A stretch of DNA of 49,560 nucleotides, counting the filler, from Sphacelaria rigidula (Eukaryota): assembly GCA_964200075.2 (NCBI GenBank). It is 3 parts of 3 records of this genome, joined end to end, with 100 filler letters (N's around TTAATTAATTAA, not from the genome) between each part and the next. Parts side by side here need not be neighbours in the genome. Positions count along the whole stretch, not along the records: positions 33,110 to 49,560 come from CAXNAA020001353.1; 2 more parts are not named here. One strand, given 5' to 3'. The position numbers and the translations under genes are program-made. This document shows positions 16,458 to 49,560 of this stretch, one piece after another (within the stretch, counting starts at the first letter, position 1; every line of letters starts with the position of its first letter). Below the pieces are notes generated by a model. That model did not search any database, had not been told where the DNA came from, and saw only the letters and a program-made list of their open reading frames with translations.

Positions 16458-16557
16458 NNNNNNNNNNNNNNNNNNNNNNNNNNNNNNNNNNNNNNNNNNN
16501 NTTAATTAATTAANNNNNNNNNNNNNNNNNNNNNNNNNNNNNNNNNNNNNNNNNNNN
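16458..16557. other. Artificial scaffold spacer (44 N + TTAATTAATTAA + 44 N)
   Basis: Exactly 100 bp with a six-frame-stop linker. Identical structure at 33010-33109. Confidence 0.97.
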
Positions 16558-33009: not shown

Positions 33010-33109
33010 NNNNNNNNNNNNNNNNNNNNNNNNNNNNNNNNNNNNNNNNNNNNTTAATTAATTAANNNNNNNNNNNNNNNNNNNNNNNNNNNNNNNNNNN
33101 NNNNNNNNN
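33010..33109. other. Artificial scaffold spacer (44 N + TTAATTAATTAA + 44 N)
   Basis: Same 100-bp structure as 16458-16557. Confidence 0.97.
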
Positions 33110-33399
33110 AGGGATGCGAGGTCAATGGTCTTATGACTATGGCATGCATGATCATGAGTACACCCCCCCCCCCTCCACTCAAAAACTCGATTTTTCGATG
33201 TTGAGACCCACGTGCCCACAAATCTTTTTTGCGTAGCCAGCCCCCTGTCCGTGGTAATGGATTTTGGTCAGCGGGCGGGTTTCTGATCAATATCGGCACC
33301 CCACTTCAAAAGCACGGTAAAAATGGAGGAGCTGTTCCAAATGGGCTGAAAACTATACTACGGGACATTTCATACTCTACTGTATTGCAGTACAAGCAC

Positions 33400-34070
33400 A
33401 TTCACGCCCTCTCTCATGAGCTGTAGCTGTCACTGTACTGCAGTGTGTTCAGACCTTCCGAACACGGTTTGGTCTCCGCTGGGATTCCCGGAGCTGCTAT
33501 ACGGTTTTGTTCCGCTCTGTACGAAAAGTTGCAATCGGCACGCAGTGCTGTCTCGTGGAACTTGAAAATGGCACCATGTGTTTGTTGAATGCTGTCTTTT
33601 GCGACGAACCGCTTCGTGCCCAGACCCATCATTCCTGTACTGTTGCTGACACTGTAGTATAGTGCGCTTCAACTCTGTGAATACGGTTTGATCTGCACTG
33701 GAGATTGCCTGCATTGCTGTACTGTTGCGTCCCGGTCGGTACGAAAAATGTAGCCGACGTGCGGTGCTGTCTCAACACGATTGAACACCCCGTGGCGTGT
33801 TGGGCGGTTGAGCCTTATGCAAAATCAAGAAGGCGCTTCGTGCCCACACTCATCGTTGCTACGCTGTGGTTGTCGCCGTACTGTGGTGCGTTTGAATCCC
33901 ACGAATGCGCTTCGATCTGCGCTGGAGATTGCGTGAACTGCTGGGCTACTGCCGTGTTCCGGTTGTGCAGGATTGGTGTGGGAACAACGTGCTGTCTATG
34001 CGAAGTTGAAAAGGTCACGCGATGGCTGTGCAGTCGTTGCGTCTTCTCTGCGTGCTTTTGTACAGGTGCA
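33400..34070. repeat. Degenerate tandem repeat, 3 units of ~220-224 bp
   Basis: Anchors g(g/a)tct(c/g)c(g/a)ctgg at 33471, 33690 and 33914. gcttcgtgccca at 33611 and 33835. Confidence 0.75.
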
Positions 34071-35619
34071 AAACTGCCCACATAGGTCACGCCAACTTCA
34101 GGTGTGCTGCTCCGATTTTTTGTCATACGACATGTGTTCTTGTCTCCACTCAAAATCGCGACAGAAAAAATAATGACAATCAAAACCGGCCAAGACACAT
34201 CTTTGAACGGCTCCCATAAGAGTTGGTCTGACAGCATTTTCGTGAGATTCAGACCGCGACCTGTTGTCGGTTCCTGAACCATACATGATCATTTCCTACA
34301 GTCTTCACCTGAACGGTGGACATTATATACAGTCAGCGCGCCCAGAACACAAGTTGAAGTTCCTACTCGTCCGGACAATATTCGAGTCTGTATTTTCAAT
34401 CCGATGACATCCGACAAAGATAGCGGGTTCTATGCGATGCCCTTCTATAAATTCTCCATGGTGGGCATGTGAAAAGAGGGACACCGACTTCGTCATCTGG
34501 CCAAATTTGTTGGACCGACGAAGTAGACCCGGTCCATTGTCCCTACGAGGCAGGGTTTCAACCTTTGCTCCGGGTGCATCGGCTGTACAGTCTGTTATTC
34601 ACGCCCGTTGTAAAAATCTAGAAAATGGCTCAGGATCTGGAAAAAAAGGTCACGATCTGAATCTCAAAAGTATGCTTTTAAACCATGCCTCGGATCAGAG
34701 CCTCAGTAGATTTCGAGGGAACGTTCCATGAAATGAGATTACGAAACAGCAACAGTAATTGAAAATATGGAAACACAGTACGAAAAAAGTGACGGCAAGC
34801 AATAGTAAGCTTCACCGGGGGGCATTCTGGGTACACACGGAGCGATTTCGGTGAATACGGCGGACAGATCCAAGATCACGTAGGCCAGTGCCGTGCACCG
34901 GGAATTCTTCACCATTCAGCACACGCAGCGCAAACAACCGCACAGGAATGTACGGCTGTTTATACACATACCTGGTATGTATTCATGCATATATATATAT
35001 AAATATACTCATTACGAGGAGTACGAATAAATCACATCGACAGATGGCACACCGATCGAGCTGCAGCGATGTTTGTAAAATTTCTGCCAGTCATATAGTA
35101 GTAACTACCGTTTGTTTTGTTACCTGCATATACACTCGTATATCACCCCGATTATTCACGATGACGCTGGTTATATCTGCTGACGCCCACCCGCAAGCAG
35201 GCTGAATTGGTCATTGGCATGCTGCGGTTGCTCAAGGGTTCATCGAACGTAGAAGAAAACAATAACATTTTCTGACAGGAAATTCGATGGAGACTCTGAA
35301 TCAGATATGGTAATTTTGAAAATAAAACAATAGTGACCATCTCGTACATGTGATGTGTCAAATTTGACGTGGTGCAGCTAGTTGGTCAAAACTCCAAGCC
35401 CATGAATCGACTCGACGACATCGAATAAGTGGGGTTAGACCCACCGTTTTCAGAATCGGGTCACACTAGCCGGTGCAAACGCTAGATGGAGGTTTCAGTA
35501 GCTACGACCAGCGGGCCCAAAACATTCTCGACCCATGTCGGGGAATGTGTGGCGGAATGTAACCAGATGATTTGCCGAACGAAAATTCTTATTAGAAGTA
35601 TAGTACAGCTACGTTGCAC

Positions 35620-36930
35620 GTGTTCGAGTGATACCTCTTCCATCCCCAGGGGCATAGTCACTCGTACGTTACAAGGCGAGAAGCGGTAGATGACCCCCGA
35701 GTGTATTTGGGGAGGGGATAAAACGATTTCCTCCCTGGGTTGGGAGCGACCAGGGGTTGTCGTAAACGAAGGAATAGGGTAGGAGTAGCTGCTGTCATTA
35801 GCTGAATCGCCCTTCGTATGATAAGAGCCAAAACGTTAGATAACACCCGTCCTGAACCCGCTTGAGAAGGGAATGAAACAATTCCTAACCTGAGGTACCA
35901 AGTGAAGGGTTGTCATCAACCAAGTGGTAGGGTGGAGGATTTTGGTTATACCTTCCCAGTCCCGGCAAGCGATCGCTATTCGTACGTGATGAGCCGAAAC
36001 TGTGAATATCAGCTCCCTAAAGAGTGCTTGGAGGCGGGATGGAGATGATATTTCTCCTGGAATAAGAGCGGTGGAGACTCATTATGAACGAATAGGGTGG
36101 GGCCGCGGTTGTAGTATTACTTCTCCCATCCCCAGTGGCACCGCCTTCTGAGCTTGCTTTAGAAGGGTATAAAATAACTTCAATTTCGGGGTGTTGAGGT
36201 GATGTGATTCATCAATAGGGTAGGGTAAAGGCGTTCTAGTGATACCTTTCCGGTCTCAACAGGCATGGCCCCTCGCACATGACGGGCCCAAGCGGTAGAT
36301 AGTAGCCCCGAGTGCATTTGGGGAGGGGATGGAATAATTGCACACGTCGCACAGATCATGATCTGACTGAAACAACTCATCAAAGACTGTCGAATCCGTT
36401 GGTGCAAAAATACACGACGTGGTCGCGGAGTCAGAAAAGCCAAAACGCACCTTTGCACTACTCGGCGTGCTCAGCGTCCGGGGCTGTAAGGAGCAGCCAT
36501 GCAAAAGGGGGCAAAATGATCCGGATCATGATTCGGATCAGCATACTGAGAATAATCAAACTTTAGACGGATCATGATCTGTCCAACGTGTGAACAATTC
36601 ATCCCCCGGGTCGGAGGGGTGAAGAGTCAATATTAATGAACAGGAGAGGATACAGAGGTTGTAGTCATCCGTTTCCAATCTCCAGGAGCATCGACTTTTC
36701 GTATGGTACTGGCCAAAACGTTAGATAGCACACACCCTGAGCACGCTTGAGGAGGGAATGAAACGATTTCATCGCCTGGGTGGGAGGACAGAGACTCAGA
36801 AACCATCAGGGTAGGCTACTAGCGTTCCCCTGATATATGCCCCGTTTCCAAGGGCATTGCCATTCGCAAGTCACATTTCAAAACGATCGATACGACTCCC
36901 TGCGGATTGCGAGCAGAGCATTCCTTGGAC
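35620..36930 (-). pseudogene. Decayed tandem-repeat coding sequence, ~165-bp (55-aa) unit, ~7 units, unidentified
   Basis: Anchors at 35681, 35831, 35997, 36290, 36716 and 36881 translate to GVIYRFSP, GVI*RFGSY, GADIHSFGS, GATIYRLGP, CAI*RFGQY and GSRIDRF. Confidence 0.55.
36341..36592. mobile_element. hAT-type MITE inserted into the 165-bp repeat array
   Basis: TIRs CACACGTCGCACAGATCATGATC / GATCATGATCTGTCCAACGTGTG with an imperfect 8-bp TSD aataattg/aacaattc. Removing it restores the ~166-bp period. Confidence 0.78.
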
Positions 36931-37754
36931 CGCCATTTAGGTAACAAACTACAGAAAACTAGCAAACAGTTCCCGATCTGACTGGAACGATACCGAAATA
37001 TGATCTCCACGAACTCTTTTGTTAGTGCCAGGCCGGCGAAATTGGTCAAGTCGCAGAGCAACGCGAGGGCAAGCGCCATCGCGTGTAGTCAAGTACAGCA
37101 AACCGCCCGGACGAGCCTTCCACGAAGAGCTCCACCACTTTTTTTCTATTCTTATTACTCTATTGGGTTGGGGATGCAGCCAAGCAAATGCCACGTTGTT
37201 TATATCTGCTCGGGCCATCTCCTGTTGCGTACCATAATCAGAGTCGACCTTGATTCCAAACTTGTGTGGGCATCAATCGCTGATGTTTCTTATCTAGCTG
37301 TTCCCACTCTTTCTACGATAGCCTCCCCACAAAAAGTGGCTGATTTGGGGAGGCATAATCTACGCATGAATCGAAATGAAAGAAGCCGGGCACAGCGAGC
37401 AGCCGGGAATTCTCACGCTTAGGTTCGTTTTCGTCTATGTCGCCCATCTGAGGCGCTTCATGCAACCTGAAACCAAACGTCGGGGGCTGCATGACCATTT
37501 TCTTCGTGACAGTTTTGGGCTGTTTTTTTTTTCTTGGGGGGCGGGGCTATCCCAGAAAGTGTCTTCTTTATCTTGTTTCTCAGGTCTAGTACAATTTTTT
37601 ACGCGAGTTTTTTTTTTTTTTATTTTTTCGCGGGAAAGTGGGCTGATATTTCTCCCGAAAAAATATTTTTTATTCCGGGCGCCACCCCTGTACGCAACGA
37701 CAGGGGCTGGTGGTGCACGCTGTCGCGTCCAGAACACAAATGTGTTGTTCGTAC

Positions 37755-38092
37755 CTCTCTGTCGCGGAGAAACAGACCCTGTGCTCGGGCGACCGCTGCA
37801 GGGCATCCGATCATATCCAATTCGCTCAAGTTCTTGCGACCACCGCTCAGAGCAAACGCACGTATCGCTTTGCACCCGGCTGCCTGCAACTGCAAGTCTC
37901 GCGGGCGACGTCTGAGGGCCGACACCACACCCTCACACGCACCATGATTGCCAAGGTAGTCACATATCCTCTCGTCTGCCATTGCCATATTCGCCAATCC
38001 GGTTATAGCGTAGATCAATACTGCGAGATACATGCACGCGTGAGCGTGTAGGGTATTGAGCAGTGACTCTGAATCGTCAGAGAGATTGCGTG
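37755..38092 (-). CDS. Exon M, ARM repeats (…LGNHGACEGVVSALRRRPRDLQLQAAGCKAI…RDRE)
   Basis: Acceptor cattcag (phase 1), donor GAG|GTACGA. No downstream exon was found before the contig break at 33109. Confidence 0.83.
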
Positions 38093-41000
38093 CTGAATGA
38101 CAACGATGAATTCGCGACGTGGTGGGTGGCACGTGGTGTTATATATCGGACGAGGTCACGATGGGAACAAATCGGGTGAATTCGTCGTCTATACCAGACA
38201 TAGATGGCAAAACATCGGAATGGGACCATGAAAACGTCATGCGGGTCTACTATCTCGATTCTACAGTTCGATGAATTGATAAGTATCAGGCATTGCATCG
38301 TCACAGCATCCATCAGCACAGATACCCTTGGAAACATGGGAGGCGATGAACAGGCCATGGATATGGTTCTCACCATCCCTGTCAACCCTTTCCCTCTCGG
38401 CTAGGCCCCCTTCCCGTCCCCCTTCCGATTCTCTTCCGCGAGTTAGTCCAAAGTTTCTTTTTCTCGCTGTTGATGATTGCGTTGTAACGGTGCCCGAAGC
38501 GGCACCGATTCTCAACGGATTCCGCACCAGTTGTATGACCACGGGGGCAACACCTGCCCTCGTCATAGCGCGAGCGCCGCCAGCCACGAAGCTCAAGTTT
38601 TGCACTGTCAAAGATCCCTCACAGCGCACGCGGATGTCGTCCGGAAAGTTCTTCAAGGCTGATACGACCGCAACAGGCACGCCGTCTTTGTATCGGTGGA
38701 GGCGGCGACGATTATCAGCCCCGGAGGCAGACATCGCCGCAAGGGTAGCCAGTGCTGCTCGCTGGGTCGCAGCGTCTCCCGGGTTGCGCTTCATCATGCC
38801 AGCCAAAGCTTCCCCAGCACCCTCTTGCACAAGTCGGCGACGACCGTCCGACGATTCTGCCAGAAGCAGCGCACAAGCACACGCCTGGAACTGGATAGCG
38901 TGTGATTCTTCTGGGGTACAAACCCTCAGCTCACTATCCCCGCTGCCGTCTTCGTCATGCTGGACGCGCCGGCCCGACCCATCCTCACCGAAGGCACGAA
39001 GCGTTCGCACGACAGCCTCGGCAGCACCCGCCTGTGCCCACGCCAAGCACTCTTCCCCCCTGCCTATCATTGCACGCATTGTCGCCATCCCCCAGTGTTG
39101 GACGTCACCGTCATTTAGGTACAGCCCAAGCGCCCGGATGGTCGGAATGAGTGCGCTCGCTTCCCAAGCGGCAGCAACTCCCTTTGGTCCCGCCGTAGCA
39201 ACCTTCGCGAACGCCCGTAGCCCTTGCGCCTGCACAGGGGGGTTATGTGGAAATCTGTTGAGAGCTCGCGAAACCAGCGCAAGTACCTTCGCGTCCGCAA
39301 TTTTGTCGGTATTGCCCGAAGGATCGGCATCTTCCACGAGCGCTGCCGTAGCTGTCAATCCCCATCGCTGAAGTTGAGGATTGGACGGATGATATCGGAG
39401 GGCATCAGCGACGGCTTCGGCCGCCCCACCGTGACCAAGGGCCGTCCGATTGAAGCCGCTGAGCGCAGCCATGGCAGCAACAGCACGACATCCTTCTTCT
39501 GCTATGATTGACTTCACCGCAAACTCCTCCAACACTCTCGAGATCAGACGGCAGGCTCCAACTTCCCCGAGTAGGCGACGGTTTTCGCCGCTCACGGCAA
39601 GCTTAGCAACGGCGAGCAGTCCTGCCCTCGCAACCTCCAAATCGCCGGCACATGCACTTAGAGCGAGAATCACAGCCCGCGCTCCACCTTTTCGACCAAG
39701 ACTTGCAACGTATTTCGGCTGGCGACATGCAAGGGCCACGCTTCCCAGAGCGAGGCATCCAGCTTTCTGTAGTTGACTGTCGGAGGGCCGTTTGTACATG
39801 GCTGCAAAGAGGGCCCGGAGAGCCCCCGCCTTCACGAGTTCAATGCATCGGCTATGGGGTGCGTGCCCACCTGCCAGCTCTGCGATTCCTCGCGCTGCCC
39901 ACACCTGCGTTTCCATTTGCATACAATCAATACTGTCCTTGCCGTGCTCTGCCCGCGTCTCTGTTTGCAACTCCGGCGTCTTTCCCTTCACGGCAGGTAT
40001 CGGATTTTCTGCGTCGTCATTGTCGACTCCGCTGGTGCTACGACCCGATATTGCCACTGCTCTCGTGAACGCAGCGCAACCGCCCATGTTTGCTAGTTTG
40101 TCCTGGTTCAGGGTGCTTTTACGGCATAGAAGAGTCGCGGCCTTGCAGGCCATCAAAAGGACCGATATCTTCTCCTTTTGGCTGACGTTGCTGCCCGGTC
40201 CATACCCTACACCCTCCGATACCCAAGCGGGTGCAGTTACTGTGCGCAGCCACGCGGCAACAAATGCCATCGCTCCCAGGGAACCGAAACGATGGGCAAC
40301 AGCGGCGGACTCGACCGAACACAGCTCAATGCGGGCATCACTCGGGTCGGGAACGACGGATTGACTGTCGTCATACCGCCGTGCTTCGTCTGATGACACG
40401 CTATTGGGCACGCCACCGCCGTGTTCGGCAATGCCGACGATGGCTGCCAGGCCGGCTTTTCGCACGACGTTATCTTGCGGGAAGGCGTCGACCGTCTTCA
40501 TAATCTACAAACATGAAGGCAAGAAATGATTTTGAAAGGTGATTGCAAGGGATAATCAAGCAGAGCGGTAGTCGTGAGATTGATGAGGTTGCGACACCTT
40601 CTGTTCTCAATATGCCGCTGAGGTATACACGCGGTACTTTGACCACCGGTGAAGGCTTTGCGGCCATCGTTGTGGTTGTTATTTGACACAGCCCATCAAC
40701 CGTACCTGCTCGCAAATGCCGGAATCGACAAGTTTCTTGCCTGCCACTGGTCCTGCTCCCTGACACAAGGCCGCCGCCACTCTGAGACACCCAAGGCGCA
40801 AGTCGCGGTCCCGCGGGAACGTCTTGGCGCTTTTGCAAATGAGTTCGCACCCACCCGCGCCCATCAACTCTGACACTACCGATGGTGATGGCTGCTGTTG
40901 CCTTGCAATCATGCGGTTGTCGCGCGGCTCCACCCCAGTGGTTGCCGACGGCGGTGGCGGCAACATCTCAGGTTTCCCTCGTCGATCCAGTCTGGTTATT

Positions 41001-44000
41001 GTACTCGCTAATGTCTCGTCACGGTCATCACCGTCGCCACCCCCGCCACCCCCAGCCCCACCAGCCCCATCAGCCCCACCAGCCCCACTGCCACCAGCTT
41101 CATCCCCAACACCGACACCACCACCGCCTTCGCTCTTGCCACCGCAACGTTCGACAAGCTCCGCAATCGCGAGCACCGCGGGTAGTTGCACCTCGTGCTT
41201 CGTCGGCGACGCAGCTAGCACATGAACCAGAGCTGTCGCGCCGCCCACCATGCCCACGCACTGAGCTGCGGTATTTTCGCTTAGATACTGAGTGGCACCA
41301 GTATCACGCTCGGGCTTTGGGGTCGAGACAATGAGCGCCAGGACAGCGCGACTAGCCGCACTGTGGATCGTGCTATCCCGGACGAACATTCGGATACTCT
41401 CTACAACTCCTCGACACACCCCTTCGATCGGTTTTGAGGTGGGGGCGATGAAATCGCCTGGACTCGGTTCCTTGAATTTTAGGAGCACGGGAAAGAGAGG
41501 CAGGGATAGGTCGAGGAGTTGTTGCTCGACGAAAACCGTTCATTACGATCTGCTTATTACTTCTCCACTGGCATGTAAAGGAAGCGCACGAGGAACGAAA
41601 GGGGATGGTACAATACGCACAGAGTCAGCTTACTCCTCATGCGCATGCCTGCTCCCCTAATCTCAGTCCCTCCGTGCTCTGATGTGCAACAAAAGCTCAC
41701 GTTCGACCACGCGCCAGGCATGCTGGCAGCAACCGCCGCGAGTCTTTCGACTATTTCTAGGCATGGAATCTGGACTTCGTCTTTGCGGGCACCGGCACTC
41801 ATAGCCACAGTAACAGCGTATCCGGCGCCCGCCTTCACCAAGCGCCGTGCCAGTCCGGGTTCTTGCGCAAGGACCGCCAAAGCTTGACACGCCGCTTCCC
41901 TCACGCCATCCTCCATCAGTGACTCCCCGGAAGTCGGCCTTTCTGAAGAAGTGGACGTATCTCCGCCGTCACCAACGGCAGTACCACCATACCCAGCAGG
42001 ACTACCCTCGCCGTCGCCGTGTGTGCCACTCTCGTCTAGATCGCTCGCGGCCACTGAAACTAATTGCTCGCAGCACTCGGCAAGGCACCGCCGGGCCGGC
42101 ACGCCGCAGGTGATACCTAGCTCTACCACGAAGAGACAGCACAGGCGCTGTATCTTGCGGCTACGCGGGAAACATTTTCCAACCTGATGCATGGACACAA
42201 GCGCCGCAGCGTAGCGGCTCAGAAAAAAAACGCCAGCAGAACAAATTTCGAAGAGCAATAGAAGGCAGAGTAAAGTTTCCGTCTTCCAACGTTACGTATC
42301 TTCTCCTGGTCCAAAAGTGATATATTTGCGAGAAACAAATTGTTGGACTTCTGCCAAGAAAGTGGCCAACAACCCACCGCAAACCTGTGCAATGATTTTG
42401 CCCAATATTTTCTGGTGACATTCATGAATTGACGTTCAACCGGTATTGTGTCCCTGAGGTGGGGAAAAGTATCTCTAAACACACAGTCCAAGCGTTGTGT
42501 CTTTAAACGACGCATTCGCACCTCAGCGACCCTACGACAGGTTGTCGGAGTGTGGAGGACCTTCAGCAGGGGGAGCAGAGGAGCTGAAGATCCCATCTCG
42601 TATGTTCCTTCCTCGACCTTCGAGTGCGATTCCAGCGATGAGTGTAACGGCGACGTCAACGAAGGCGTTGATGATGAGGCATCCTCGCCTAAAGGGCTTT
42701 TGGTCACCGACGCGCACCCCCTGATCAACGACACGGTCAGCGTAAGTGCCTCAGTCATCAGCTCCTTATCCGCGGCCTCAAACATACGGAACAGCAATGT
42801 GACAGCGTTCACTCCACCGCGTTCCGCTATTTCTGCGGATATACTCTTCGGCGCCGTTGTCGCCCCCACGCTCTGCTCGCCGACGCCGGCACTGCTACTA
42901 CTACCGCTCGCGCCGCTGTGCTCAACGTTGAGGATGAAGCAGAGACGGTTCGCCAAGCGACAAGCGACGAGTTGTACGTCTCTAGTAGTCGCCCCACTTG
43001 TGGTCGATTTGACGCCTTGGATCTGTTGTGAACGCTTCTGACGTAGCTGCTGGAGCTTGGCTTCCACCTGCACGATACAGTATCATACCGATGACGTCAT
43101 TACGGCATCAACGGTTCACACGCCTTCGCTTCGGGAATCAAGGGTCTGCGAAGTACGATTCCGCGAAATGATGGCCGACCTAAAGTAGGTACGCTTTCCC
43201 CTCTGTGGTATGACGAGTTGTGTCCACCTCAACAGAAGTACCTTCCTTTGCTATTCTTCGGCCTGTACTATACGCCATCAGGAGAGGACTTGCCTCCGCG
43301 GTTTCTTGCAGCACATCCTGCTCCAAGCCGGCGGCTGCCACGAGGGCTCCTGCCTTTCCTGCAGGAAGAGTGAGCGCGACCTATCTCATAGTGTTTAGCA
43401 AGAGAAATGAACGTGGCCGCATTCACGTCAAGGAAATATAGATATGCACAAGGAGGAAACTGAGATTGGAAGAGGCAGGTGGATGAGGATTTTGCGTCAT
43501 CTGGCGTGGCAAGACCGAGCTCGCGAGACCGTACTCACGTCATAAGAATGGGAACGTTTCTCGCGCAACGTTTGTCGCCGTCTGCCGATAGAGTGGCGAT
43601 GCTACGGCTGCCAGTTTGCTCGAATTTTCTCTTCATCGGCGTATTGTTGGAGGAGGTGGGGCTGCTTCTGTGGATGCTCGCAGTGGACGCACATACTCTT
43701 ATTCCGTAATCAAGAGTCAAATTTGTCGGTATGCAATGTGCTTTCATTTGGCAGGTTTATGTATTTTTACATATTGAGCTATGGGACCTTAATCGATCCG
43801 CAGCGGGGTATCAAAACCATGGCTCGAGATAAAACGCCCCTAGTGCACTGAGAACGCCTTACACCCCGGAGGGGGGGAGGGGGATCGTTTGGGTATGTGC
43901 ATTCCTGCAGGTCCCAAGGGGATGAATTTTTCAGCCATAAATAGCACCACGGATTAGCGGGTGGGTAATCGGGCCTGTCCCAAGCATTTCAGGGTCTGTT

Positions 44001-47000
44001 TCCTACTCCCTGTGCTCTACTGGTTGGTGCCAAAGACAACATAATGTGTGACGGCGGGGACTCCCTAGTCATGTCCCCGAGGAATATCGTGCCTCTCCTC
44101 AAGCGGTACCGTTTTGTTTCTACCCGGGTGCATCCAGTCGCTCCTCGAAACGTTCTAGCTGTTGTTTTCTTCCGTCACCCCGTCACCCCATCACCCCGTC
44201 ATCGTTCTGAGGATTGTTCGCGGATTGGATACGTCCGTCCGTTGAAGTCATTTTCGGACATGACGACGTACCTTGGGTATCATTGTGTGCCTCTGACTGC
44301 CGAACGTCTCCGCCAAGGTGATGTAGAACGCCGCCGCAGTCACCTTTCCCTTGCGGTATGCCGCCGTCTGCTCTCGCAGTCTCTGTGCACGCTGTTTTTG
44401 CACTTCACTCTCCGCGATTCTTGCGTTCTCTATCTCCCGCCTGCGCAATAATGCGGAGTGGGAGTGGTCGAGAGTTCAACGACTATTTCGCGATGAAACG
44501 AAGGTAGCAACAACTACAAGCGAAAAGTTCCAGAGATGGGCTAACGACAACTTCGAAGTATTGTTATTTTCGTTCACAAAATCTCTGTCCTGCAAAGAGC
44601 CCGTCGTAGCTGAGGTTGTCGTTGATCCTTCAGACATGGAGAACGCGTATTTCCGGAAGGGAAACAGGAACAATTCTCGTGGTCTATCGTTTGACACAAG
44701 TAGCCTCAGCAGGAGAAACAATCGCCCGATGCCCATCAATCCATACGCTCAAACGCTGCTTCCTTCGAACGGGAATATGTAACGTAGGAAGAGGTGACGT
44801 CCCTGAATGCGCACCGTGACTCGCATGAGTAAACCAATCCAGGGGTGACGGACAACAGGGGTTCCTTCTCACGCACGCGCAAGCGACACCTTGTCTTGAG
44901 CACCCTCACCTGGCGTTCCTAGCTTTAGAGCCCTTATTCGATGCTTGGGCCCCATCTGACGGCGCAGACGTTGACCGGTCGACTGCGGATGTAGCATTTC
45001 CCCATGCTCCGGGACCCCCTAAACTCTTTGGTAGGTACTGCGGTATTGGAAGATTCTTCCTGGTGACGCACCTTCCGACGGATGGGCGGATGAATAATGC
45101 AAGTGACGGCGCGGTAGATGAAGGGTATCAAAATATGTAGGACCCCAGTGAGGCAGCAAAACGTAACATTCTGCATCATTTCGAGCGCTGATTTGAGCAA
45201 GGCGTTAAGAAAGCGAGAGCGATTTGTTGAACAGGGTATTTTGACGAATCAGGCGTCCAGAACATCTTGTGTGCTTCGCATTGTATTGCCGCTCCTGTTT
45301 CGTTGCGGTATCACCTGATGAGATGCATGGCGTTGGCCCACTCCATTGGATCTAGCTCTCCATCGTGGTCGGCATCCGCCAAGTCCCACACCGCTGCGAG
45401 CTGTTCGCGCGTTAGACCGCTCTTGGTGAGCAGCTCCACAGCTTCCTGGCCACTCACCTTGCCATTATCATCGCTATCGATCTAAACAGACATTCCATTC
45501 CAATGATCGTAAACGGGAAGAAAAACAATAATGCGGCCCGAAAACGGTGATCAGAGGATGCAAACACACCTTCAGCTGCACGTGAAACGCGTCTTCCGGC
45601 TGGGTATGCGAAACTCTACTTAGTTGTGGCCATCTCTGCAAGTGAGTCGTATATTTTCTCTGCCAATGGCGATTGTTTCTTCACCAGCCCCTCTCCCGAT
45701 TTCCGCCGAACTGCGGTAGTATGCCGTTCATGCCCACCTGCATGAAAACCACGTCGTACCGTCCCCGCTCCGCTGTGGTCATCGTGTACGAGTCGTCCGA
45801 TACCTGTTCTTGCCGAACAACACCGTTCGCTCGCTTTTTGTCTCTTCTCTTCTTGATTTTCTCTCTAGTTCCGCCGTCTTCTGATGCCACGTGGCCGTCA
45901 TCCCACACCGCCTTCGTCTTCCCGATCGGATCTACCTGCTTCGGGTTGCCAGGTTCTTCCGAAATGTTTTTCTTCACAATGGACGCCGTGACTGCGCTTG
46001 ATGCGGCACCATTTTGACCGCCGTTGTCTTCAATATCCCGCCCGGGCGTCTCTTTGACCGGTGGCGGTGCTTTTGCTGCTTCAGTCGCACCTCCTCCGCC
46101 TGCTGGTGAAGCCGTAGCCCGTGATGTCGCTTCAGCCGTGCTGCCGCCGGCGGCAGAACGATTATTCCGTTTCTTGGACTTCTTCTCTCCACTTACGGCG
46201 GGTTCGGCCGGTGACACCGCTACCTTTGCTTTGGTGCGACGCCCTTTGGCCTTCACTCGAGACCGATCATTCCGCGCGGAATCTCTACTCGTGGGCCCTC
46301 CAGCTGCACTATCACTTTCAGTCGCACTTCGTCCGGCAAGAGAGAGACATTCTGGCAGGGCACTCGGCAGCGGAAGTTTCTTCTTCCCAGCAACACACGA
46401 GGCGAGGTGTACTGCCACCGCAAACTCGTGTCTCGACAGTCGCCCGTCTCCATCAGCGTCAGCCATTGTCCACACACGACTGAGGTCCCCCTTGTCCAGA
46501 CCGGACTTGGCCAAAACGGCGGCAGCCTTTCGACTCGGACACACGGGGAGGAGTTACGGCAACTCAGAATGATCACGTGAAACCAAAGTACGAACATTTC
46601 ACCAGACCCTCCTTGCGGGTCAGAAAAGCTTGCTTGTGCCACACACTGGTTTGTGCCATCACTGAAGGAGAAGAATAGCACGCCGTGGATCGGGTAGTCA
46701 GAGATACGCGGTTAGAAAATCAAGTTCACGCGTATGCCGGATAATCTTGAGATTTACCCATACTGCGTATCCGATCTTGCTGAAGGAAGCACAGACGCCG
46801 CTTACCTCCTTTCCGCCGATGTGATCGGAAGGGCCGAAACCCAATGAGCAGAACGCTTTTTCATGCTGCGCCTTTTCCTGTTCACTCATTTGGTACCTCA
46901 GATCTCCTTCCACCACATTACCCTTTTTGCCGGGCGTTTCCGTGCATGTCGACTCAAGCGCTTCTTGTGCTGAACTCCCCCGTGCTTTTGTGTGCTTCGG

Positions 47001-49030
47001 GCCGACCTGCACAACCACCGGTTCTAGACCTTTCCGTGGACGTTCTTCCCTTTTTGCATTCCCCTTTCCGGTTGGGGTGATTCCCGATGCTTGCTTCTTG
47101 GGGTCAAGAGTAGCTTGTTCACACGACTTCGTAGCACTATCCGCCAGGCAACACGGTAAAGTGTGCGGCATGGGCAACTTCTTTCCAGCGACACATGAGG
47201 CGATGTGCATTGCCACAGCAAATTCTTGTCTCGAAAGCTCTCCATCTTTGTCGGCGTCAGCCATGGCCCACAGACGACCGAGATCCTTCTTGCCCAAGCC
47301 GGACTTGGCCAAAACGGTGGCGGCCTGCGAAGTCGTCGCCACCGCAAAAATTTGTTTGTGGGCAAGGACGTGTATATTTACATGCTGTTTCCGTGGACAT
47401 GTTTTTCGTGTTGTTGGCGATCACTTCGCAGTAGTTTCAGTCAAGGAAAAGCTATTTACACGTCCTGGACTCAAGATATTTGAAACCGCAGCGCAGACAA
47501 GTCACTTCTCTTTTGCCATATGGCCAACGTCTTGACAAGCAGCGCAAGCGGCGCTTACCTCCTTCCCGCTGAGGTTGCCCGAACCACCAGGAACCAATCT
47601 ATTGAAAGCCTTGTCGTGGTGGGCCCTGTCGCTCTCACTCATTTGATACTTGAGACCTTCGTCGTCCACGACCTGCTCACGGCTCGACGTCCCTGACGGT
47701 GTCGACGCATGCCCTCCCGTTTCCGCATTTTCTTGTGGCCCTTCGCAGTTATCTTGGATCTTTATGCTCTTTGTCGGTTTGCTACCCTCTCGTAGACTAC
47801 GCTTCTCCCTCGGTTCCTCCTTGCCGCTGTCTCCGGATACCTGCTGCTCGCCATCAAGATTACTAGCTATCGCAGTACATTTCTTCGCCGCAGCATTAAT
47901 GTCATCGAAAGCAGCAGACCCCTCCCCCTCCGCTGAGCCATTTGTAATCCGCGCCAGACAACATGGCAATGTGAGCGGCATAGGCAACTTCTTCTTCCCG
48001 GCGACACACGAGGCAAGGTGGAAGGCAATAGCAAACTCTTGCTCGGAGAGTTCACCGTCTTCGTCGGCGTCAGCCATAACCCACAAGCGCTCGAGATCTG
48101 AATTTTCCAAGCCGGACTTGGCTAATACTGAGGCAGCCTGTCGGCTCAAACGCGCGGAGGAGGTCGGAACCAAATAGAAAGAAACGTTCCACAACAAAAC
48201 GTGCGCAGAAAGTTGAGAGGCCACTCGCTGTACACGGGGAAAGGTTGGCGCCGGTGAGCGCAAAGGCTCCGCGAAAAATCGCGTCGGCACAGAAAGGACT
48301 TCGCATCACGTATCGCTTTTGAGTTGTAAATTGCGACTGAGGGAAACTAGGAGGTAGACCTAGATCTACTCGGGGATACGTGCAATCAACACTTATTGAT
48401 CGCCCCTGTCACGGGGTCCCTCTTCGACTCAAACGTACCTCAAGCAAGCACAAACGACGGGCTCACCTCCTCGCCGCCGAGGTGACCCGAACCGCCGGAC
48501 ATCAACTTGCTGAAGGCCTTGTTGTATTGCGCCCTTTCCTTGTCAGTCATTTGGTATCTCAGATCTTCTTCCACACTTGACCGACTGCTCGACTTTCGAG
48601 ATTGCGCCGACCCTGTCACCCCTTCTCCTACGCTTGCTTGTTGTTTCAAGTGTGCATCCCCGACCTGCTTTCTTTTTTCTGTCGGCGAATCGTGCTTCGG
48701 CTTTTTGGATCCCGTACCGCTCGATGCACCTCCCGATACTTCCTTCTGGGGCACAAGATTTGCCACGTTACTATTAGTGTTTGTCGCAATACCGATGCCA
48801 CCTGAGGCAAGAGGCCCTCTTGTATCTCCCGCATGTTCCAATGTTCGCACCAGATGATGTGGCAACGTGCGTGGCATGGGCAACTTCTTCTCAGCAACAC
48901 ACGAAGCGAGGTGCATGGCAGCGACGAATTCCGGTCTTGAAAGTTCACCGTCTCCGTCGGCATCAGCCATGGTCCACAGACGACCGAGGCATTTTTTACC
49001 CAAACCAGACTTGGCTAGTATGACTGCTGC
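37755..49030 (-). CDS. Large tandem-EH-domain plus armadillo-repeat protein, multi-exon and open at both ends. Exons: 48467-49030, 47559-48137, 46806-47324, 45738-46526, 45315-45481, 44910-45071, 44272-44440, 43294-43380, 42522-43067, 41701-42183, 40706-41470, 38374-40504, 37755-38092
   Basis: Thirteen exons join in one open frame (>2400 codons) with phase-consistent splice sites. The N-terminal part repeats the EH signature AxxxLxKSGLxxxxLxxxWxxADxDxDGxLxxxEFxxAxHL...LPxPxxLP. The C-terminal part carries many ARM repeats of the type HPxxxxVQxxGxxALxxLA and GAxEAVVxxL. Confidence 0.88.
38374..40504 (-). CDS. Exon L, main armadillo-repeat solenoid (~710 aa)
   Basis: Acceptor ttgtag, donor G|GTGAGA (phase 1; an alternative phase-1 donor lies after 38326). 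Repeats include HPSNPQLQRWGLTATAAL, FPHNPPVQAQGLRAFAKV and NPGDAATQRAALATLAAM. Confidence 0.9.
40706..41470 (-). CDS. Exon K, ARM repeats with a Gly-rich insert
   Basis: Polypyrimidine tract plus ttcaag acceptor, donor CAG|GTACGG, 765 bp, phase 0-0. Confidence 0.85.
41701..42183 (-). CDS. Exon J, ARM repeats (VGKCFPRSRKIQRLCC...LVKAGAGYAVTVAM...)
   Basis: Acceptor catcag, donor AAC|GTGAGC, 483 bp, phase 0-0. Confidence 0.85.
42522..43067 (-). CDS. Exon I, start of the ARM-like region
   Basis: Acceptor gtgcag, donor GAG|GTGCGA, 546 bp, phase 0-0. Confidence 0.85.
43294..43380 (-). CDS. Exon H (VALTLPAGKAGALVAAAGLEQDVLQETAE), ending at a GC donor
   Basis: Acceptor gatag, donor GAG|GCAAGT, 87 bp, phase 0-0. 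Confidence 0.7.
44272..44440 (-). CDS. Exon G (REIENARIAE...AAYRKGKVTAAAFYITLAETFGSQRHTMIPK)
   Basis: Acceptor ttgcgcag, donor AAG|GTACGT, phase 2-0. Confidence 0.82.
44910..45071 (-). CDS. Exon F (CVTRKNLPIPQYLPKSL...KARNAR), EH tail and linker
   Basis: Acceptor ggaag, donor AG|GTGAGG, phase 2-2. LPxPxxLP is the EH C-terminal motif. Confidence 0.8.
45315..45481 (-). CDS. EH exon E, canonical EH core (IDSDDNGKVSGQEAVELLTKSGLTREQLAAVWDLADADHDGELDPMEWANAMHLIR)
   Basis: Acceptor ctgtttag, donor AG|GTGAT. Two EF-hand loops. Not in the supplied ORF track. Confidence 0.9.
45738..46526 (-). CDS. EH exon D (EH C-terminal part, long linker, first helix of the last EH)
   Basis: Acceptor gaaag, donor CAG|GTGGG, 789 bp, phase 0-0. 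Ends YTMTTAERGRYDVVFMQ. Confidence 0.88.
46806..47324 (-). CDS. EH cassette exon C
   Basis: Acceptor ttcgcag, donor GAG|GTAAGC, 519 bp, phase 0-0. AATVLAKSGLGKKDLGRLWAMADADKDGELSRQEF...YQMSEQEKAQHEKAF...GGKE. Confidence 0.9.
47559..48137 (-). CDS. EH cassette exon B
   Basis: Acceptor gacag, donor GAG|GTAAGC, 579 bp, phase 0-0. AASVLAKSGLENSDLERLWVMADADEDGELSEQEF...YQMSESDRAHHDKAF...SGKE. Confidence 0.9.
48467..49030 (-). CDS. EH cassette exon A (C-terminal part of one EH, linker, N-terminal part of the next EH)
   Basis: Acceptor aagcag, donor GAG|GTGAGC, 564 bp, phase 0-0. AAVILAKSGLGKKCLGRLWTMADADGDGELSRPEF...YQMTDKERAQYNKAFSKL...GGEE. Confidence 0.9.
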
Positions 49031-49113
49031 CTGCTTTGAGGTATGCATGTAGACGAAGGAAATTGTGCCATCTGTCAAGGGCGGATGAAAAAAATATCCC
49101 TGGATCCACACAA

Positions 49114-49144
<31 letters not shown>

Positions 49145-49191
49145 ACCGCATGATTTAATTATAAAAAAAGACAACCAATTCNNNNNNNNNN

Positions 49192-49560
49192 GCCATCTGT
49201 CAAGGGCGGATGAAAAAAATATCCCTGGATCCACACAACCCCCCCCCTCCCTCCCCAGCAGCTGCTGATGTGAATTGTTAACTTCTCAAACGAGACAACT
49301 GTTTATCAGCCTTTGGGGCGTCACTTGCTCAGCAAGACGTTGTCGAAACAATGCGCACGAGCCGTGCGTGGTTCGTTCGTGTGCTTCATGAATAAATTTG
49401 GACTGTGTGCCAAGGGCGGGTGAAAAAAATATCCCTGGACCCACACTACCCCCCTCCAGCAGCTCCTGATTTGATTTTTTTTTTTCTCAAACGAGACAAC
49501 TGTTTGTCAGCCTTTGAGGGGTCAATTGATCAGCAAGACACTGTCGAAACAATGCGCACG
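49192..49560. repeat. Intronic tandem repeat, ~210-bp unit
   Basis: caagggcgg(a/g)tgaaaaaaatatccctgga...ttctcaaacgagacaactgttt...gtcgaaacaatgcgcacg at 49201 and 49411. Confidence 0.8.

Follow-up and report, generated by a model that had tools for sequence, protein, structure and literature searches.

EH domains each bind NPF-type motifs weakly, and in scaffolds such as Eps15 and Ede1 they form an N-terminal cluster, together with a coiled coil and DPF repeats. Among brown algae the nearest described exon systems are the ROCO-LRR and NB-ARC-TPR genes, in which each repeat occupies one symmetric exon; the relevant sections of the published accounts give as their hallmarks exons of equal length, inverted copies within introns, intergenic exchange, diversifying selection and splice variants (PMC3341825, PMC11378527), identical length of successive exons being the criterion in section 17 of PMC3341825, and ROCO type I exons stand in a fixed register of their repeat. 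For nebulin and other proteins, the part of PMC1553488 that treats them describes repeat expansion in mid-array by internal tandem duplication of repeat blocks, with exon patterns that recur and junctions that fall within domains.

Here we describe a giant gene of Sphacelaria rigidula (GCA_964200075.2) in which three successive exons have both their borders at one and the same point of an EH domain. We read them, with a probability of roughly 0.7, as in-frame copies, spliced in order, that trace back to the tandem duplication, long ago, of an EH domain that had a phase-0 intron in it, in what is probably a constitutive scaffold with additional EH binding sites. The unit resembles that of nebulin in its mode of repetition and differs in kind, being, in this brown alga, one globular EH domain together with a disordered linker.

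The window, by which we mean the whole stretch of DNA analysed (49,560 nt), consists of separate contigs, nearly equal in length, joined through N-linkers at 16458-16557 and 33010-33109, the latter with TTAATTAATTAA between its N runs; both linkers join unrelated contigs, and the flanks are not genomic neighbours. Positions 33,110 to 49,560 are contig CAXNAA020001353.1 (C1353), which carries the array, and since the window was pieced together in this way its right edge coincides with the point where that contig stops.

Exon structure and extent of the array

All exons of the gene lie on the minus strand. Exons A (48467..49030, 564 bp), B (47559..48137, 579 bp) and C (46806..47324, 519 bp) are all of phase 0-0, with open frames, AG acceptors and consensus GAG/GTRAG donors (the stroke marks the splice point), and the sequence encoded by each extends from AAx[VI]LAKSGL to G[GS][KE]E, so that the EH domain is split at the same point in all three. 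Exon A encodes helices 2-4 of one EH domain, a low-complexity linker of ~94 amino acids, and helix 1 with the loop of the next EH domain. Exon D (45738..46526, 789 bp), likewise of phase 0-0, starts where A-C start, continues through a long linker and ends at FMQ/GT with helix 1 of the terminal EH domain; because its two ends are not equivalent it is not a clean cassette, its phases notwithstanding. The terminal EH domain is spread over the end of D, exon E (45315..45481, 167 bp, phase 0-2), which encodes its core, and the start of exon F (44910..45071, 162 bp), which encodes its end and a linker, and its intron positions differ from those of the other copies.

Exon G (44272..44440, 169 bp) is conserved in orthologues, and exon H (43294..43380, 87 bp) has an in-frame GC donor and, at 43241, a second possible donor of the GT type. 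Further downstream, exons encoding ARM repeats occupy 37749..43067, an approximate span from tblastn, and the gene probably ends on contig C24216. Built on RNA-type joins, a model from A to I is open over 1193 codons.

The Pfam EH profile (PF12763) matched exons A, B, C, D and E at 39.6-53.7 bits against a cut-off of 22 (E 2e-14 for exon E), and the EH domains of A-D align to Eps15 EH2 (E 1e-9). Invariant in A-D are L5, L15 and W19, which we take to be residues of the EH pocket, and the second EF-hand loop, DAD.DG.LS..EF. An allele of exon B (P0131) is identical to it at 171/173 amino acids. A six-frame profile scan of the window found the coding copies only, with no inverted or intronic EH copies, and searches of the assembly, which lacks the upstream part of the gene, returned no cassette copies elsewhere. 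Other EH-encoding exons do exist in the genome (L009:388-609 on C6035, L015:198-368 on C8415, L020 and L021); in the two that were read, those on C6035 and C8415, the borders differ from those of the A-C cassettes.

At the end of C1353, the intron upstream of exon A contains three copies of a ~200-bp repeat (49067..49560). In the DNA run X7 this repeat reaches a depth of 1400-1800 against about 15, about 100-fold over the gene, and it is a high-copy dispersed element. The transcript goes on beyond it: X8 contig 25 carries 861 further letters 5' of exon A, and a loose end in X2, upstream of exon A, reads as another N-terminal EH third. Given these two sequences, the gene has at least four split-type EH domains in addition to the terminal one, and a sixth, divergent EH domain is probably present, as it is in the orthologues. 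The exon upstream of A did not turn up in searches of the assembly with a 30-base pattern, an N-terminal EH third and the first EH domain of an orthologue, and C1354 and C1355, the neighbours of C1353, are unrelated contigs, similar to it in length, that gave no tblastn match and do not extend the array rightwards. A search of the assembly with an orthologue matched its far N-terminus to C25625 and its C-terminus to C24216, the only parts found, from which we infer that C25625, C1353 and C24216 are one gene split over at least three contigs.

Exon sizes and phases, the shared start and end points of A-C, the start of D, the deviating introns of the last EH domain and a count of at least five EH domains had all been proposed in an earlier sequence-only reading, and the frames, splice sites and sequences agree with it on every one of these points. 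Its further statement was that the array runs past the right edge, which is a contig end; the transcript does continue, into what reads as an N-terminal EH third that may belong to another symmetric cassette.

Could so fragmented an assembly, with one gene over at least three contigs, have created the copies? X7 consists of unspliced DNA from a different haplotype and carries A-D in the same order at a flat depth of 13.6-18.2, in a comparison of order that covers this one other haplotype. Its successive pieces share 30 bases at all but two junctions, one of them in the B-C intron, where the overlap is 5 bases and the contigs are not bridged. The EH copies are only 65-75% identical, and each is covered by spliced contigs as well as by this independent haplotype at flat depth, which leaves an assembly artefact a negligible probability, as the sequence-only reading had anticipated from the divergence of the linkers. 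X7 departs from the window at 40 of 1951 letters around D-E, at 18 of 878 around C and at none of 1007 around A-B; divergence is about 1-2% over 43000-47422 and gives way to near identity over 47731-49072, a sharp step inside the array.

Splicing of the cassettes and the EH pocket

Contigs of four of the eight listed runs were compared, of which X1, X2 and X8 (from two studies) are spliced and X7 is unspliced. The records bear no RNA label, and the former three are treated as RNA on account of the GT/GC-AG sites at which their contigs are joined. Exons A and B are joined in X8 and X2, B and C in X8 and X1, C and D in X8 and X1, D and E in X1 and X2, and E and F in X8 and X1; among the downstream exons the H-I join is also present in spliced contigs. 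A single X8 contig reaches from the end of A across the whole of B into the start of C, and another covers C-D, both without branching. The cassettes are therefore not arranged like the mutually exclusive arrays of the Dscam type, where one exon is used per transcript: here A, B and C occur in one contig and C is joined to D.

The sequence-only reading had proposed a potential combinatorial system, in which EH number and spacing could be tuned by splicing or by copy number. It was right that skipping or duplication preserves the frame, as it does in all four of the skip combinations tried; the gene shows alternative splicing at exon H, and the part of PMC11378527 concerned with Ectocarpus ROCO genes describes LRR splice variants. 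The joins themselves argue otherwise. Among 12 listed joints in the four runs (three of them spliced, with contig depth about 2.5-17) none skips a cassette, and those of the three spliced runs link neighbouring exons only; the cassette donors match the GAG/GTRAG consensus, and duplication alone accounts for the symmetry.

Contigs at a depth of about 2.5-17 drop rare isoforms, and minor or tissue-specific skipping could for that reason escape. Alternative joins can nonetheless surface in these contigs, because one was caught at exon H: X8 uses the in-frame GC donor, giving a GC-AG intron (43068-43293) that is in frame with the orthologues, whereas X2 uses the GT donor at 43241, which shifts the frame and leads to an early stop. 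We consider alternative skipping of the cassettes unlikely; were it regulated, the array would be of greater importance. On the reading that we prefer, the symmetry of A-C needs no splicing function, because duplication alone necessarily yields it, and the equal phases would be a by-product that does not point to a splicing switch.

The position of the intron within the domain bears on what a skip could achieve. Presumably the intron sits at the start of EH helix 2, and, for the part encoded after it, the alignment to the 100-residue chain of Eps15 EH2 begins at residue 39. According to the portion of PMC8927860 that describes the domain, the NPF pocket is made up of the second and third helices, and it is thus likely to lie wholly after the intron. 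A cassette skip would swap only helix 1 and a degenerate loop, which would probably alter valency and spacing and not specificity. The proposal that skipping or recombination makes complete chimeric EH domains is correct as to frame, but such chimeras would not be expected to gain new pockets, because helices 2 and 3 likely lie together in one exon part.

Orthologues and history of the copies

The largest downstream exon encodes ARM repeats, with ARM_LRRK2 above its cut-off, and used as a query it returned orthologues of 2508-3452 residues from Ectocarpus fasciculatus, E. sp. CCAP 1310/34, E. siliculosus and Cladosiphon okamuranus, along with a partial orthologue from Discosporangium (accessions CBN77331.1 for E. 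siliculosus, CAM9344248.1 for E. fasciculatus, CAB1119102.1, and g6665.t1 for Cladosiphon). Identity to the Ectocarpales orthologues over this exon is 54-63%, and in their annotation none of the proteins has a name or an assigned function. Where complete, the orthologues consist of an N-terminal region, a short ARM stretch, a charged helical region, a divergent EH domain, two split-type EH domains, the terminal EH domain and ARM repeats; in an orthologue of 3452 residues the EH domains lie at residues ~790-1810 with the ARM repeats behind them. Five orthologues have 0-1 DP[FW] motifs and no NPF. Searching for longer homologous proteins with exon B yielded none among 1625 candidates, and a search with part of exon A yielded 4 among 279, none reaching upstream.

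The EH domains of this gene, which align to Eps15 EH2, are common to it and the Eps15/Ede1 and intersectin/Pan1 scaffolds. It does not belong to the Eps15/Ede1 family by organisation, in that its EH domains are internal, have linkers of 80-180 amino acids between them and are followed by ARM repeats. Literature searches on brown-algal EH-plus-armadillo proteins, the four accessions and EH exon duplication found nothing on the gene in openly accessible papers, in which the brown-algal family of EH-plus-ARM proteins is so far undescribed. A count of five or more EH domains also occurs outside this family. ArfGAP proteins of other eukaryotes (P0011-P0013) have 6-8 tandem EH domains and belong to a different family; these proteins top our profile search and are unnamed in the sources checked.

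Between the Ectocarpales orthologues and the Sphacelaria gene, the domain order, the divergent first EH domain, the split-type and terminal EH domains and, apparently, the intron sites are the same, whereas the linkers cannot be aligned and the orthologues have one symmetric cassette in place of three. Split-type EH domains number two, that is, one symmetric cassette, in all five long models (E. fasciculatus being represented twice), against at least four here, and the total is four in the Ectocarpus-type relatives against at least five. EH number thus varies between lineages, which supports the sequence-only reading on this point.

Conservation of the intron sites was followed in a profile search of 1.84 billion proteins, the matches used being exon-sized ORFs called on genomic contigs. 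Eighteen proteins were selected by hand, 16 of them among the 150 best matches and two in later searches. The start xQ/AA..LA[KR]SG is present in 13/18 and the end FMQ/V in 11/18, and six have the cassette-type end G..E/V, two of the six being the B and C exons of this species itself; P0022 reads through an intron and holds a cassette and a D-type exon in one frame. To judge by the points at which these ORFs depart from the spliced protein, the intron within the EH domain appears to be old and shared.

DNA identity among the EH parts of A-D is 65-75%. Of 10 intron pairs none clearly beats shuffled sequences (the best at 4 of 200), and of the six linker pairs A-C alone does so. The values of dS are 0.78-2.23, and dN/dS is 0.07-0.38 over nine pairwise comparisons; between D and a close relative of it 55/59 EH residues match and only 119/180 linker residues do. 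These pairwise values indicate that copies A-D are old and under purifying selection.

On these data the gene is set apart from the ROCO-LRR and NB-ARC-TPR genes, with which the sequence-only reading had compared it. One repeat per symmetric exon in a fixed register, in the same algal group, is all that it has in common with these systems as portrayed in the sections cited above. The features reported there otherwise differ from those found here: exons of equal length against 564, 579 and 519 bp, inverted or intronic copies and an outside reservoir against none found, and diversifying selection against pairwise dN/dS of 0.07-0.38. Of splice variants with different repeat combinations there is none among the joints from three sets of spliced contigs, but such contigs drop rare forms. 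A fast shuffling of this kind, by germline or somatic recombination and with chimeric EH domains of new specificities, would fit the difference in EH number between lineages, and the residual similarity of the A and C linkers is compatible with some later exchange. Unequal exon lengths, near-saturated synonymous sites, unalignable introns and dN/dS well under 1 speak against it, as do the lack of inverted or intronic copies in the window and of dispersed ones in searches of the assembly, the same order in the second haplotype and the likely confinement of the pocket helices to one exon part, and we regard it as highly improbable.

The longer array may have arisen in the lineage of Sphacelaria or been ancestral in brown algae, with cassettes lost by in-frame deletion in the Ectocarpales and kelp-like lineages and splicing constitutive throughout. 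A 65-column tree separates all split-type EH domains from the terminal EH domain at 100/100 and places A-D outside the Ectocarpales EH1 and EH2 groups. AU tests rejected neither A-D as one clade (p 0.178) nor A-C with Ectocarpales EH1 (p 0.136) nor D with EH2 (p 0.119), and because they leave these alternatives to a lineage-specific expansion standing, loss in the Ectocarpales is possible. Placing C alone with Ectocarpales EH1 was rejected (AU p 0.024). Duplication of a two-exon block (AB to CD), suggested by an extra Lys common to B and D, gained no support, B-D identity being 66.7% against 75% for B-C.

The kelp-like sequences touch on the same matter. Three D-type ORFs (P0070, P0075 and P0080) group with a Laminaria digitata fragment at 92/93 (unstarred), and P0070 and P0075 carry a cassette linker like L1 of the Ectocarpales (0/500 shuffles; 136 pairs tested). 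These ORFs hint at an orthologue form that may have no symmetric cassette, and a deletion fusing two exons could give the L1-like linker; this, the age of the copies and their branching outside both Ectocarpales groups speak for an ancestral array. Against it, all four cassette-ended ORFs of other species among the proteins selected (P0022, P0095, P0103 and P0161) fall in the Ectocarpales EH1 group, and no A-, B- or C-like cassette of another lineage is found in the best 150 matches, examined in part. An ancestral array followed by losses is doubtful in our view.

Under the duplication reading that we favour, the unit copied would have been an EH domain with its internal phase-0 intron and linker, and any copy of such a unit would give an exon whose two borders fall at one position within the domain; with one cassette present, unequal crossing-over could add more. 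The binding of a single EH domain to NPF-type motifs being weak, additional copies on flexible linkers may give higher avidity or a longer reach towards partners, probably ones in membrane traffic; other partners would be bound by the ARM repeats. By analogy with the EH family, a role as a multivalent scaffold in membrane traffic seems likely.

The array is best read as an ordinary, old and constitutively spliced repeat expansion. Its interest is that a globular binding domain was expanded through exons whose borders lie inside the domain, with an EH number that depends on lineage, and that it offers an example of successive homologous phase-0 exons that are neither LRR nor TPR. The Ectocarpus screen for exon pairs of equal length, as set out in section 17 of PMC3341825, would miss cassettes of unequal length such as these.

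The N-terminal region

The N-terminal 220 residues of the orthologues are also present in Sphacelaria, on C25625 (L059:4531-2058), and there, as in residues 1-221 of P0001, the N-terminus bears a weak resemblance to a SAM followed by a TIR domain, with a CLME motif as in the flax L6 TIR. Pfam TIR_2 gave E values of 0.023 and 0.061, below the cut-off. The Atlas row for the region (0.91) has TIR_2 on 42% of its members, and the first Atlas match was SAM at 0.88, a lead only, with no Pfam SAM match. PDB sequence searches gave no match, PADLOC and NCBIfam lent no support for TIR or SAM, a fold model reached a pLDDT of 42, and two fold searches returned no useful match. In a profile comparison with a true TIR domain encoded elsewhere in this genome, 9 of 500 shuffles reached an equally high score. 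Tentatively, the region might be a SAM-TIR.

SARM1 has the domain order ARM-SAM-TIR, and shares with this gene the ARM repeats (ARM_LRRK2 above cut-off) in a different order. One might picture a protein restricted to brown algae and built as SAM-TIR-ARM-(EH)n-ARM, which would be an enzyme of signalling or cell death like SARM1, placed on the endocytic machinery, with valency set by the cassette number of each lineage and, within an individual, by regulated skipping. We think such a protein very unlikely. If the N-terminus were an active TIR enzyme, algal immunity would be tied to endocytic scaffolds. Elsewhere in the genome, on C3297 (L061:1108-1998), there is a clear TIR ORF that scores above the Pfam cut-off and matches the flax L6 TIR.
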